A stretch of 64,000 nt of DNA from Eledone cirrhosa (lineage: Eukaryota). The DNA is taken from contig OZ024744.1 of assembly GCA_964016885.1 (NCBI GenBank), positions 77,252,001-77,316,000 on the forward strand, in the 5' to 3' direction. Made by a program: the position numbers and the translations under genes. The number at the start of each line of letters is the position of its first letter. Position 1 is the first letter of the stretch. Under the pieces are notes generated by a model, which ran no database searches, was not told where the DNA came from, and worked only from the letters and a program-made list of their open reading frames with translations. Positions 1,826 to 64,000 of this stretch are shown here, piece by piece.

Positions 1826-2189
1826 TAGAAAGTGAGGTTTTTTTTACAAAATGAAAAATAACCGAGGTGTCCTACACGAGTGGAAGTATAAAGAAAAAGA
1901 GATGAAATCGAAAATGCAACTGAAGTCTTATTTTTTTTTAAAATATATATATTTATTTGGTTCCTTTACCGGTTTCGCAGTTCTTCTGCTTTTCAAAAGG
2001 TGAGTTGAGATGGAGGGTCTGTGGTTTTTCTCACATCAGATGTAAGAAAAACCAAAGACCCTCCATCTCAACTCACCTTTTGAAAAGCAGAAGAACTGCG
2101 AAACCGGTAAAGGAACCAAATAAATATATATATTTTAAAAAAAAATAAGACTTCAGTTGCATTTTCGATTTCATCTCTTTTTCTTTATA
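1826..2189. mobile_element. Hairpin HHR element in (TA)n (Penelope-like terminal repeat fragment)
   Basis: Near-perfect inverted arms 1887-2189 centred on ~2038, an extra tail at 1826-1886, (TA)n on both sides; related degenerate hairpin at 28441-28570. Confidence 0.75.
2076..2113 (+). ncRNA. Minimal type I hammerhead ribozyme, U3-A8 core variant (mirror copy 1963-2000 on -)
   Basis: CCTT-TTGAAAA-GCAG aagaa CTGC-GAAA-CCGG-TA-AAGG: stem I CCTT/AAGG, stem II GCAG/CTGC, palindromic helix III ACCGGT, GUA cleavage triplet. Confidence 0.7.
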
Positions 2190-2690
2190 TATATATATAT
2201 ATATATATATATATATATATATATATTCCCCTTCTCACTTCCTCCCGTTTGGCTTGTGTGGGTCTCTTCTTGCTCACATCTCACACACATCAACACGGTC
2301 TGTACCTCTCCCGCTCATGAAATCCACCCAGCTTATGCTGACCGGACAACCATGTTGCTTGTTTATTTTCCTATCTTCGGTTTGCTTTTATCCTTCTATG
2401 TTGTTTACTTGTCCCCCTCGCCTAACGCGAATTCTGGTCCCAATAACTTTTTTTAGTTATTGCTCGCACCAACCTGAGGTATCTGATTTTTAATGCGATG
2501 AAATACCAATGATGGTTGGAAAATCACTGACGAAGGACTATTGTTATCATATGTTACCCATGTGCAAACCACGCACTATTCTTCTTTCTTCTCATGTTTA
2601 TATATATATATATATATATATATATATATATATATATATATATATATATATATATATGGCAATATTATTACACATATATATATATATATA

Positions 2691-2860
2691 TGAAAAAAAG
2701 GAAAAGAATGACTTCACTTGTAGTGTTAAATAATTTGATTTAATTTTATAATATTAATATTATAAAATTAAATTAAATTATTTAACACTACAAGTGAAGT
2801 CATTCTTTTCCTTTTTTTCAAATATACCTAACTGTACCAAGGATATCACACATCTTCCAA
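2691..2860 (+). mobile_element. Hairpin plus tail element between (TA)n tracts
   Basis: Inverted arms 2691-2820, then tail ATACCTAACTGTACCAAGGATATC..CTTCCA resembling tails at 23434-23503 and 31770-31840 (-). Confidence 0.6.
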
Positions 2861-2872
2861 TATATATATATA

Positions 2873-2963
2873 TCAAGCCATTTCGACGGCTAATTCTGGA
2901 CTAAATGTCCAGAATTAGCCGTCGAAACGGCTTGAGCTCTGCCGTCGGGGTCATACTTGTTCC
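2873..2963 (+). mobile_element. Short hairpin plus tail element (family also at 32252-32366 and 63860-63975)
   Basis: TCAAGCC.TTTCGACGGCTAATTCTGGAC taaat GTCCAGAATTAGCCGTCGAAACGGCTTGA, then GCTCTGCCGTCGGGGTCATACTTGTTCC(TA)n. Confidence 0.65.
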
Positions 2964-3085
2964 TATATATATATATATATATATATATATATATATATAT
3001 ATATATATATATATATCATGTTTAATATAGAAATGGCCTCCACAGGACTCTAGAACTGCTTCATTGTAATATAATATATAATATA

Positions 3086-3270
3086 TAATTGTTTCTACTT
3101 TAGGCACAAGGCCAGCAATTACCCAGTGCATTACTGGTACTTTATTTTATCGACACCGTAAGGATGAAAGGCAAAGTCAACCTCGGCGGGATTTGAACTC
3201 AGATCGTAAAGGGACGTAACTATGCTGGAAAGCATGGCGTCCGACCCTCTACCGATACTGCCAATCCACA
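3086..3270 (-). mobile_element. SINE family A
   Basis: Near full-length match to the family A consensus seen across the window. Confidence 0.85.
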
Positions 3271-4174
3271 TTCAGGTTCCCGAGTGGTGCCGCTGGTGTA
3301 CCACTGTCTAAAATGTGTGTGTGTGTGTGTGTGCTAACGAAAGATATGTGTGTATATGTTATTGCTGACATTTACTTAGAAATATTATCTGATCCATGAG
3401 TGGGTGTTATATTTAAACTTATTTATTTGGATTCTAAGACTACAAGAATTCAACTTTGTCGTCCAAGATCGACTCTACAGTTCTTTGTCCTTCCTCCTCT
3501 CCCCCCCCCCCCCATCTTCCCCACTCTCCTTCCTCCTTTCTCTCTCTGTATTTTTCTTTGACCGCCTGAGTCACTTAGTTTCTCTCTTCCTCTCACGCCT
3601 CTCCTCTCTCTCTTCCTCTCTTCCTTTCTTTTCCTGATTTTGTCTGATTTTGAAACGGTTCCTCCACATATTCTCAGTGAACTCTTCCGTCTTCAGTCCC
3701 AACTTCCCACCATACCATAAATGTTATTTCTGTAAAGAAAAAAAGGAAGAAGGAAAAAAAAAGATAAAGAAAAAGAAAGAAAAGGAAAAAAAATCCCTTT
3801 TCCCTCTGACATGATCAAGTTTCCATGTCGAAGGTCAACGAGTCACGTGACGGCAGATGTATACATACATATATATATATATATATATATATATATATAT
3901 ATATATACATACATACATAAATATATATATATTAGTTAAATTTTTATTTTTATTTTTAAAGGAAATTGTATCTCGCATATCGTTTTCCATCTCTTGGGAT
4001 ATTGCAGCAGTTTCTGATTTTGCTAAGCTAAACATATAAATTAACATAGCCGAAATATACACTGGTTGAACTAGCAACAGCAATACCAATTCCTTTATTA
4101 ATAAATGACTCCTTATTACTAAGGCGCAAAGCCAAAATTTCTAGAATATGAGGATATGAGGTGATATAGTATAA

Positions 4175-4575
4175 AGTGGTCTCTAAACTGTTTTATACCA
4201 CAGACCGGCTTCATGCCAGACAATCTTCCTGCGGACCGGTAGTTACACATATGTGTTATTTAAGTGTATTTCAATAAAGAGAGCAATAATAAAAAGAGCA
4301 ATTTATTAAAGGGAAGAAGTGTATAATCTTTTGACTCTCGTGTCTGGGCTCCAACCTGACCACATATGTAAAATGTACTTACAGTTATGATAGATAGTAA
4401 AGGTAGACGTAAAATATACATTGATTATAAAATGTACTTACACTTATGGTATTAAGTAGATGAATATTGAATATTTAAACATATCTTTTTAAATTAAAGT
4501 TTGGTATTCAATTTATCTATTATATAATTTTAAACAAGTTAATTATTTCTTTGATGGACGGACAGGTACCGATGT
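4175..4575. mobile_element. hAT/Charlie-like non-autonomous element remnant
   Basis: End GTGGTCTCTAAACTGTTTTATACCACAGACCGGCTTCATG..GACAATCTTCCTGCGGACCGG resembles MER1-like hAT termini (from memory). Confidence 0.4.
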
Positions 4576-61809: not shown

Positions 61810-62510
61810 ATTTCATTTATTAGTCACAAGGGCCGACATGTAGGGGATTATACAAAGACAGGGACAGTGGGGGTTTACAATAAGCTTGAGTAAAAGTGCA
61901 CAATGGCAAGACTAATTTAACAATGAAGATATAAAAATATAAAATAAACTATGCATAAATATAACAAAATAAATTCCCTTGTTGGGGGTGGACGACCATG
62001 GGGGTGACTCGGGTACCCCACCAATCCTGAACTGCCCTGCGCTTCTAGGGCACCCGGGGAGAGCACCCCTGTCCTTATCAAATTAGCTAGCCTATAGGCG
62101 CATGGTCAGAGTAGGCCCATTCACACGCTACATTCATCCACCTTTTAGCAAATGTACTGGGGGGCAGCACTTCTTTCTCCACCCTCACCTTCCTTTCCAG
62201 GAGAAACTTGAATGAGGGATTGGCCGAAGAGATAAGTGTCTGTCTTCAGTGTTTTCAATCTGGTCCACCATACAACCTCTTTCGCAACTGCCACCAGACA
62301 GAGGAAAATTTCATGCTCTTCCTGACCCAAGGAAGGCGGCGGGTCGATCTTCATTATGGACTCGGCCGATAGCCGGATCCGTTCTACACGCGACAACAGC
62401 TGATCGGAAATAACTCCACAAGTCAGTAATGCACGGTCTTTGGACAAGTGCGCGAAAAACGGTTTCGTCGCTCTGTGCGCATCTCGGGCAGGTCCGTCTG
62501 ACAGCACTTC
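61810..62510 (-). pseudogene. Tx1/L1-like ORF2 C-terminus and 3' end with (TTA)n tail
   Basis: RTCPRCAQSDETVFRALVQ..LWSY (degenerate zinc knuckle), EIFLCLVAVAKEVVWWTR; adjacent (TAA)n tract. Confidence 0.75.
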
Positions 62511-62511
62511 C

Positions 62512-63085
62512 TATGTCTACGTCATTTTTATTTTATCTGTTTATTTATTTATTTTTGTCCTCTTCTCTGCGGATGCGTTTGAGTGTGTGTATCGTGTTTG
62601 ATGTGTGTGTTCGCGTTTGGGTGACTGTTTTGGTTATTGTATTCTATCTCAGTCACCAAAACGCGAACACACACCAAACACGATACACACACGCAAACGC
62701 ATGCGCAGAGAAGAAGACAATAATAAATAAATAAATAAACAGATAAAATAAAAATGGCGTAGACATACAATACAACAGGAGGAAACATAATAGTACCACT
62801 GATGATGTTGCAGATGTGCAACGAAAGAACTTTGTTAGACTATATATATATGTATTTATATCTGTATTTTTGACCATTGGTCAGTCAATGATGAACATTG
62901 AGGACCAAATGAATTAACTATGGAGATATAAAAGATACAGAATCGAAAACCAACCATACAGTGACTGTGTTCTGTTATTATTTCTGGCAATATTATTGCA
63001 ACAATATGACCCCCCCCCCCCCAAGTATAACAATATCTGTTTCGACACACGATTTCATATCAAAAACCTCGCAAAACATATATTT
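62512..63085 (+). mobile_element. Hairpin (62512-62767) plus HHR (62792-62841) plus tail element
   Basis: Inverted arms; CTGATGA-T-GTTGCA gatg TGCAAC-GAAA-GAAC-TT; tail related to the 31082 family. Confidence 0.75.
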
Positions 63086-63307
63086 GTGACAGTGTCTACA
63101 AAGATCTGCCAAGATGTTTTGATGTTGGTTGAAATGTGTGCGTGTGTAAAAGACTAGTCAACATGTGATAGTTCATAATTGCATCCCAGTTGGCATTATA
63201 GAGATCCATGTTATCAAATGGGTGGGCTGGAAAGAGGTCTCTGGGATTAGCTTTCGGCTGGTGGAATCTCAGTTCTGTCCTACGCCATCTTGTTTTTGTG
63301 TGTGTTA

Positions 63308-63440
63308 GATAGGACTAGACATAAGATAGGGAAAGCCACCTCATGATACGACAACCAGAGATACGAGAGTGTCATGTTCGTGGACGCTACCCCTGGAGGG
63401 AAATTAGCTAACCAGTGTAGAAAGGCCCTGAGAAAGACCC
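63308..63440 (+). pseudogene. Penelope-like element ORF fragment (region between RT and endonuclease)
   Basis: DRTRHKIGKATS*YDNQRYESVMFVDATPGGKLANQCRKALRK resembles the PLE motif K..WY....YE.VLFV.ATPG..L (from memory); lies between short inverted repeats at 63279-63305 and 63438-63462. Confidence 0.6.
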
Positions 63441-63506
63441 ACACAAAAACAAGATGGCGTAGGACGGAACAAAGGAGAGGCACAAAAACAAAGAAAAGAA
63501 TCCCCA

Positions 63507-63549
63507 GTCACTGAAGAGGTCACAGAATGTGTGACGAAAGAACTTTGAC
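63507..63549 (+). ncRNA. Minimal type I hammerhead (homolog of 31423-31467)
   Basis: GTCA-CTGAAGA-G-GTCACA gaatg TGTGAC-GAAA-GAAC-TT-TGAC. Confidence 0.8.
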
Positions 63550-64000
63550 AATATATGAACAACCGTCCGGTTGTGGAACCAACCAACCAACCAACCGGAA
63601 CTTTATAAATTCTTAAATTTATAAATTTAATTTATAATAAATTGGAGTGAAAGCAACTGGTGCGTGTGTTTCTTATTAACAGCATGACCCTCCCAAAGCA
63701 TAACAATATCGGTTTCAACACACGTTTTCAGATAAATAATCTTGTTAAACAAATTCAGAAATATATATATATGAATATATATATATATATATATATATAT
63801 ATATATATATATATACATATATATGAATATATATATAAATATGTATATATATATGAATATAACAAAGGAATTGTGGTAAGAAACCAGATGAACCATAACG
63901 CACCAGAGTACTCCAGTACTCCAGAAATAGCCGTCGAAACGGCTTGAGCTCTGCCGTCGGGGTCATACTTTTTCCTATATGAATATATATAAATATATAT

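Follow-up and report, generated by a model that had tools for sequence, protein, structure and literature searches.

Endonuclease-bearing (EN+) Penelope-like elements (PLEs) are known from insertions of a characteristic form: a partial tandem of the pseudo-long terminal repeat (pLTR), an inverted 5′-truncated copy, a "tail" that is often found at one end only, palindromic junctions, a hammerhead ribozyme (HHR) in the pLTR, and a bias toward (TA)n targets that is tied to the Zn-finger linker (PMC8557442, Craig et al. 2021; PMC3846280, Arkhipova et al. 2013). The inverted truncated copy, the one-sided tail, the HHR and the (TA)n bias were already published in the first of these papers; in the accessible parts of both, tail asymmetry and arm lengths are described without counts. 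We examined a 64,000-nt stretch of the Eledone cirrhosa genome (GCA_964016885.1, contig OZ024744.1, positions 77,252,001 to 77,316,000, forward strand; hereafter the window), in which a first-pass annotation had listed 12 inverted structures and a large tandem array. We consider it rather probable that these are 5′-truncated, head-to-head insertions of EN+ PLEs and retrozymes into (TA)n, produced by double-ended priming on one RNA and joining of the two cDNAs. In our assessment the kind is known and the families are new, with tails of 28 to ~90 nt as compared to the published 30–40 nt, and the evidence that they offer on PLE integration appears useful but inferential.

The window is very rich in microsatellites (the assembly totals 3.0 Gb). 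With these masked, inverted pairs at short range that score 40 bits or more number 21, as compared to 0–1 in each of 20 shuffles, and all 12 listed structures are present at or near the positions given for them. We refer to each by its originally listed first coordinate; refined limits are collected in Table 1. The layout that had been ascribed to all of them, (TA)n–inverted arm–sense arm–tail–(TA)n, is complete in 1826, 2691, 8422, 31082, 41281 and 42035. The other six of the 12 depart from it through a missing tail, missing TA flanks or a cut-back arm: 2873 is without its family tail, its extra 28 nt stopping at the family's tail-less boundary; 32252 has its tail to the left (~32180–32251), outside its original limits; 16821 has two tail-less arms flanking a piece of another family; and 28441, 62512 and 63279 each have a shortened inverted arm. 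All-against-all comparison sorts the 12 into nine families, namely A (31082 and 63279), B (62512), C (41281), D (42035), F (1826 and 28441), one family comprising 2873 and 32252, and one each for 2691, 8422 and 16821. The earlier estimate of about ten families is thus close, with two retrozyme units in addition to the nine; the elements do differ in sequence, except that the three pairs just named share a family.

A PLE origin is evident for five of the families. The window itself holds only a 66-residue fragment of a PLE open reading frame (ORF), at 63305–63502, but in longer copies elsewhere in the genome (loci with L numbers) reverse transcriptase (RT) and GIY-YIG ORFs are continuous with the 3′ ends of families A, B, C, D and F, which cover 7 of the 12 elements. 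In family A a 580-residue frame with RT (YVDD), CX4CxxC and GIY-YIG runs into the sequence of 31082 (L014), and its Atlas neighbours are RVT_1/HTH_animal/GIY-YIG clusters. The family B protein (L038) is 62% identical to that of A, and the family F protein (L274) 51–55% identical to that of C (L069, L071, L081), so that families first taken to be unrelated belong instead to PLE clades. Family D is represented by a frameshifted copy (L138) that carries CxCX5C, CxxC and CxH; a LINE (long interspersed nuclear element, REL-type) ORF upstream of another D copy (L150) was considered as its ORF and rejected as merely a neighbour. RVT_1 scores slightly below the curated Pfam cut-off, and GIY-YIG exceeds its cut-off in C only. 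In each of the five linked families the GIY-YIG EN lies at the C-terminus, which rules out the Naiad clade, marked by an N-terminal EN and the lack of a canonical HHR.

The linkers further distinguish these families. Those of C and F have CX4CxxC, a long spacer and CCHH, and match the Neptune rows of Fig. S2 in PMC8557442; those of A and B have CX4CxxC with a 7-residue spacer (intact for B in L294, not in L038) and match the short-spacer Nematis rows of the same figure; that of D has CxCX5C, no CCHH, and CxxC and CxH near the end, in agreement with the Hydra definition in that paper. At the level of these motifs we designate C and F as Neptune-type, A and B as Nematis-type and D as Hydra-type. 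File S1 of PMC8557442 already includes an octopus Hydra family that prefers (TA)n, and the HHR sequence it gives for Hydra-1_Obim differs from that of family D. Further Hydra-type EN fragments occur at L079, L084, L122, L125, L067, L172 and L095, and the genome therefore contains more Hydra families than D.

Among the ends of the window elements, 18 of 24 lie within 10 nt of (TA)4, as compared to a 3.8–9.5% background, a figure that is partly circular because those ends had been picked at TA runs. Samples from the whole genome, being unselected, remove this circularity. The genome has 6,545 exact matches to a 28-mer of family C (control, 0); among the first 100, where we scored by eye head-to-head pairs within 10 kb, 58 matches form 29 such pairs, as against one tail-to-tail and one tandem pair. 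The tail is on exactly one arm in 29/29, and (TA)n adjoins 58/58 ends (background 8–15%). For family F, whose exact 31-mer occurs 10,895 times, 18 of 19 pairs have one tail, the exception being two separate insertions, and a script found TA at 33 of 38 ends against the same background, with two of the misses showing TA on inspection. The (TA)n targeting proposed at first pass is therefore borne out, as is an inverted 5′-truncated copy with optional tail in families A, C and F; any target-site duplication would be hidden, since both flanks are (TA)n. Insertions of different PLE families also lie stacked directly against one another within shared TA tracts, both elsewhere (L005, L028, L037, L039, L120, L148 and L151) and in the window at 2599–3016 and 41244–43194.

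Arm lengths bear on how the second arm arises. The 29 family C pairs comprise 12 with equal arms, 13 with a longer tailed arm and 4 with a longer tail-less arm (automated classes for L190, L191 and L208 were corrected by eye). The tail-less arm measures 4.5 kb against a tailed arm of 0.19 kb in L186, 4.4 against 0.42 kb in L204 (both family C) and 3.5 against 1.05 kb in L274 (family F); it is the longer in 7 of 14 one-tailed pairs of family A, whose loci were selected by similarity, unlike the C and F lists. Moreover, the loops of 31082 and 8422 (the latter 13 nt) continue the tail-less arm. Single-primer fold-back would have a tail-primed cDNA loop onto itself, serve as its own template as far as the tail boundary and then be ligated to the remaining target end; it needs a tailed arm at least as long as its partner and owning the loop, and so leaves these cases unexplained. 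A related self-priming on an antisense template has been proposed (PMC3846280), and fold-back would suit several features: 12/29 C pairs are near-perfect palindromes, many of them centred on a self-complementary GATC; private variants are common to both arms; short inverted stubs occur at 5′ ends (L013); and a 7-nt microhomology in L191 would permit self-priming. We judge it unlikely. As the only route it is contradicted by L186, L204, L274 and L017, but it survives as a sub-step with transfer to a second cDNA.

The longer tail-less arms instead require that template-directed synthesis also begin at the opposite target end. A PLE protein studied in vitro, Poseidon PAc, behaves accordingly: it cuts and extends both strands of an AT-rich target, and its RT starts at two neighbouring sites between which the tail lies (PMC11167929, Frangieh et al. 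2024); in the accessible parts of that paper the two sites are unconnected to inverted arms or symmetric hairpins. On the double-ended priming that we favour, both nicked strands of the TA target would each prime a cDNA on one template RNA, at start sites ~30–90 nt apart whose gap becomes the tail, and the truncated ends of the two cDNAs would then be joined to each other. Short symmetric hairpins would result where both cDNAs run off the RNA 5′ end at the pLTR transcription start, and the array would be moved in trans by PLE protein. We infer these three components (double-ended priming, run-off and mobility in trans). The second arm may be either an independent RT pass, from the same or an upstream pLTR, or a fold-back copy finished by strand transfer. 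L1 twin priming is an analogue for an RT pass from an upstream pLTR.

The two arms of an insertion share variants, which argues for one template. At polymorphic sites of family C, G14A is present in both arms of six insertions and in one arm of two, C119T in both arms of four and T78C in both arms of two (neither in one arm only); eight private variants are common to both arms, in 6/29 insertions. Two apparent discordances were examined and discarded: a T/C difference between arms in 16/21 C insertions, considered as a sign of two templates or of editing, reflects ascertainment (the query variant occurs in 1/100 unselected matches), and A-126T in family D is TA flank. Junctions show 0–3-nt overlaps or short fillers, once 7 nt (L191), and some have captured foreign sequence: family B ORF in 63279 (insert 63306–63442, 96% to family B vs 72% to family A), a retrozyme unit in 16821, 100 nt in the array, and ~280 nt in L206. 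Of the fold-back or template switching put forward at first pass, template switching at junctions is thereby upheld, and fold-back alone is not, given longer tail-less arms such as those of L186 and L204.

One family A insertion, L019:4770-6909 (G000:C1, ~154891770-154893910), has a cluster of A>G changes, most of them common to the two arms and located within the final 380 nt. A>G accounts for 9/10 substitutions of one arm (P ~8e-7 before correction for 44 arms), and a 29-mer with three of the changes is unique in the genome. This pattern is compatible with a template RNA that ADAR had edited before it was copied into DNA; the bases next to the changes show no clear ADAR-like preference. Family-wide, no A>G excess was found (A>G vs T>C per kb: A, 5.8/5.6; B, 11.0/10.9; D, 5.3/9.6); the family C tally is left aside, microsatellite matches having dominated it.

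The short symmetric hairpins tend to fold at preferred places. In family C the fold centre is at or within ~10 nt of one GATC in 11/29 pairs; in family F, 17/30 arms end inside a 12-nt window; and 5′ ends cluster near -300 in D and at -311 to -334 in A, where the cluster precedes AAAATGGCG, presumably a YY1-like motif. In C, F and the 8422 family a TATA-like box precedes the cluster by 31–34 nt, and CCAAT occurs at 81–103 nt; in F the distance is 31 nt and the box reads TATAAAA. We read the fold hot spot as the likely pLTR transcription start. Longer family C copies have their pLTR, or a partial tandem of it, with a tail continuing into the ORF start: most of 112 exact matches near the ORF start are preceded by pLTR-tail-29 nt-ATG, as are, by eye, 23 of the first 30 listed 5′-reaching copies. 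A 5′ start shared by two long C copies was considered as a ribozyme-cut RNA end and rejected, since copies run past it into pLTR-tail.

Recurring sizes (7/29 C pairs are spaced exactly 206 nt) could suggest that short hairpins are non-autonomous elements, either PLE-derived or resembling miniature inverted-repeat transposable elements (MITEs), propagated as whole copies of a few master hairpins; 16821, moreover, resembles terminal inverted repeats with TA ends. We find this quite improbable. Hairpin centres vary between copies (spacings 192–215 nt, different loops), so each appears to have been built anew, not copied from a master; variants are common to the arms of an insertion, not to same-side arms across insertions; and arm lengths are continuous up to full ORFs. 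The arm family of 16821 has a tail and HHR elsewhere, and its spacer comes from another family, on which grounds we rejected a MITE/Tc1-mariner type for it.

Long-read fold-back chimeras or assembly errors would also yield inverted arms, some of them identical (31082 has 0 mismatches in 271 nt), and no sequencing-run contig bridges a hairpin centre with at least 31 letters on each side. Such an origin for the hairpins is nonetheless scarcely credible: arms of older copies have diverged (4/39 and 6/57 mismatches), one arm always ends at a family-specific boundary, and foreign sequence is captured at junctions. In addition, four short-read contigs of 54–56 nt from run X1, which may not be independent of this assembly, cross the 41517 centre with 23–28 letters on the short side. 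Runs X1, X4 and X5 have contigs that stop at the tail-less boundary, and 29 X1 contigs show TA on its far side. Among the contigs aligned, no joint with a change of strand was listed. No RNA run containing the family C sequence was among the sequencing runs listed, which carries no information on expression. On the side of artefact, the unplaced contig of L122 (G000:C1714:117500-125500) is palindromic through its flanks; it holds a both-tailed family A insertion, and is a possible fold-back artefact or large palindrome.

Metazoan PLE hammerheads have an extra base after A9, a short palindromic helix III and a U3–A8 variant core, and occur in opposite-strand pairs 100–700 bp apart (PMC4209133, Cervera and de la Peña 2014); from what is accessible of that paper, those described here show no essential difference. 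We used a minimal type I descriptor and a second variant allowing any 3–8 core pair; a stricter descriptor misses most HHRs, and the second variant is needed for 1826 and 41281. With the minimal descriptor the window yields 20 motifs, as compared to a shuffle mean of 0.01; the array accounts for 13 of them, 31082 and 42035 for two each and 63279 for one, and two are solo. With the relaxed one (shuffle mean 0.017), both arms of 1826 have a U3:A8 core, palindromic helix III and GUA. The claim that the larger elements contain an HHR is thus correct for 31082, 42035 and 1826 (on both arms of each) and for 63279 (on one arm), and otherwise needs qualification: 41281 has a degenerate HHR only (U3:A8, A13C, 3-bp stem I), stem I in 62512 is 2 bp, and the core in 16821 sits in the spacer, from a different family. 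By descriptor search there is no complete HHR in 2691, 2873, 8422, 28441 or 32252; the 8422 family has one just upstream of this copy's fold, and of a likely U3:A8 hammerhead, recognized by eye from L137, 2873 retains just the 3′ half. By family, HHRs appear complete in A, D, F and that of 8422, weak in stem I in the window copy of B, and degenerate in C. Of 361 Rfam matches, the 150 listed are all miRNA-type hairpins below threshold, with no hammerhead family among them.

Family C has a homologous fold, but A13C in 173/174 sampled arms. This core change, fixed in a Neptune-type family with 6,545 matches, is unlike the published EN+ PLE units in the parts accessible to us, and implies that the young and abundant family C probably moves without a functional ribozyme. 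In two family C insertions (L184, L195) a short tail-less arm starts within ~5 nt of the degenerate HHR cut site. Mirror HHRs acting on both strands, as envisaged at first pass, seem not to be expected: in 3/3 hairpins folded, the HHR core of a read-through transcript is predicted to be fully paired with the opposite arm and therefore not to fold, so that mirror ribozymes would be silenced in read-through RNA. Solo hammerhead cores of further families occur in the window at 5569, 7991(-), 10744, 16677, 23339(-) and 50805, of which 7991 and 23339 pass the descriptor.

Retrozymes have been proposed as non-autonomous PLE derivatives (PMC7229834 and bioRxiv 10.64898/2026.07.22.740005). The window array consists of 14 near-identical units of ~490–570 nt, with 13 type I HHRs on the minus strand that have a palindromic helix III (ACUAGU) and a GUA site; it contains no coding ORF among the ORFs of the window, and its units occur in dispersed arrays genome-wide. 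Tandem non-coding units with a type I HHR in each are what it has in common with non-LTR (long terminal repeat) retrozymes, from which it differs in unit length (~500 vs ~300 nt, as far as accessible descriptions go) and in bearing a PLE insertion signature: a tail at one end, a tail-less inverted arm and TA flanks, the layout of the hairpins, as first proposed. The main text of the bioRxiv paper uses neither "tail" nor "target site", and the accessible text of PMC7229834 does not use "inverted". From this organization we classify the array as a non-LTR retrozyme with PLE-type ends. A ~four-unit block is repeated within it (44752–46809 and 46810–48862, with the same TA-tract lengths and order of single-nucleotide polymorphisms), by later unequal crossover or assembly duplication.

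Several points weigh against our reading of the hairpins as double-ended PLE and retrozyme insertions. Four of nine families and both retrozyme units lack an ORF link among the loci examined: no ORF is continuous upstream of the 2691, 2873/32252, 8422 or 16821 arms at those loci, 2691, 2873 and 8422 having had no dedicated genome search. Clade labels rest on linker motifs, not on a tree. Both-tailed pairs make up 3/17 in family A (similarity-selected loci), and both-tailed C insertions (L071, L217 and L218) and the doubly tail-less 16821 exist, so that "one tail" is a strong bias and no rule. Short arms of asymmetric C pairs stop near the inferred start in only 1/13, and the TATA/CCAAT reading relies on promoter spacing as generally known. 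Two C variants are discordant (G175C, in the tail-less arm only in two insertions; G171A, in both arms of one and one arm of another), and gene conversion between arms could be the source of the shared ones. The mechanism is read from sequence, in which a second RT pass is not distinguishable from a fold-back completed by strand transfer.

The features of the window are given in Table 1. The tail of the family D element has 33 nt deleted relative to other copies. Inverted pairs beyond those originally listed lie at 9571–9612, 12324–13058, 32937–33473, 33703–34245 and 36592–37357. A low-complexity tandem repeat of ~4.6 kb (57000–61600) translates as SSTVLQF-like repeats in several frames, and a ~200-nt dispersed repeat, frequent in other genome loci too, occurs at 1328–1737 (in tandem) and 3090–3270.

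Table 1. Insertions, HHRs and related features of the window (window positions; clade types by linker motif)
Feature	Position	Strand	Details
Family F (Neptune-type) insertion	1826..2189	-	tail 1826-1886, sense arm 1887-2037, tail-less inverted arm 2039-2189
U3:A8 hammerheads of 1826	1963-2000 and 2076-2113	- and +	
Hairpin without HHR	2691..2860	+	arms 2691-2755 and 2756-2820, 40-nt tail; family without ORF link
Shortened left arm and tail-less right arm	2873..2963	+	family of 32252 and 63920
Hairpin	8422..8588	+	arms 8422-8459 and 8473-8510, 78-nt tail; no ORF link found for family
Single tail-less arm of family B	14984..15285	+	between TA runs
Two tail-less arms of older HHR family	16821..17307	+	16821-16979 inverted; 17202-17307
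Piece of tandem HHR family inside 16821	16980-17204		225 nt; stops at own tail-less boundary
Short family F hairpin with tail	28441..28570	+	old (~80%); without long TA flanks
Family A (Nematis-type linker)	31082..31683	+	tail-less arm 31082-31355 including GTT loop, sense arm 31356-31626, tail 31627-31683
HHRs of 31082	31241-31285 and 31423-31467	- and +	
Same family as 2873	32180..32366	-	diverged left tail ~32180-32251, arms 32252-32308 and 32310-32366
Family C (Neptune-type)	41281..41721	-	33-nt tail 41281-41313; arms fold at GATC site 41517/41518
Degenerate HHR on both arms of 41281	41555-41591	+	position on + strand
Family D (Hydra-type)	42030..42436	+	tail-less arm from 42030, sense arm to 42381, tail 42382-42436
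HHRs of family D element	42079-42142 and 42269-42332	- and +	
Tail-less 3′ end of family A	42929..42964	+	36 nt, between TA runs
Single tail-less family C arm	42987..43182	+	
Non-LTR retrozyme array	43194..50201	-	14 units; tail ~62 nt at 43194 end
Filler and inverted partial array unit	50202..50659	+	100-nt filler, then tail-less inverted arm 50302-50659; (TA)n at end
Family B (Nematis-type linker)	62512..63085	+	inverted arm 62512-62652 cut short; weak-stem HHR on sense arm; tail ~47 nt
Chimera	63272..63760	+	34-nt inverted family A stub, family B ORF 137 nt, family A 3′ end with tail
HHR of 63272 chimera	63507-63549		in family A 3′ end

Our literature search, which most subscription papers lay outside, found no paper in which tail asymmetry and arm lengths are counted or symmetric hairpins are connected with the start site. 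What this genome adds is scale: tail, arm length, stop point and shared variants can be counted across thousands of copies, and the mechanism of PLE integration becomes testable by counting in young head-to-head pairs. We regard as evenly balanced the wider proposal that young insertions record PLE integration, with two-site priming on one RNA, run-off mini-hairpins, retrozymes using the same machinery, and ADAR-edited RNA occasionally rewritten into DNA. If true, it would answer the question left open by Craig et al. (2021) of how tandem and inverted PLE copies form, and would hold across three PLE clades. Assemblers and annotators may mistake such hairpins for artefacts, MITEs or microRNA precursors; for the organism, thousands of near-perfect hairpins in a 3-Gb genome could, if transcribed, be substrates for double-stranded RNA pathways and editing.

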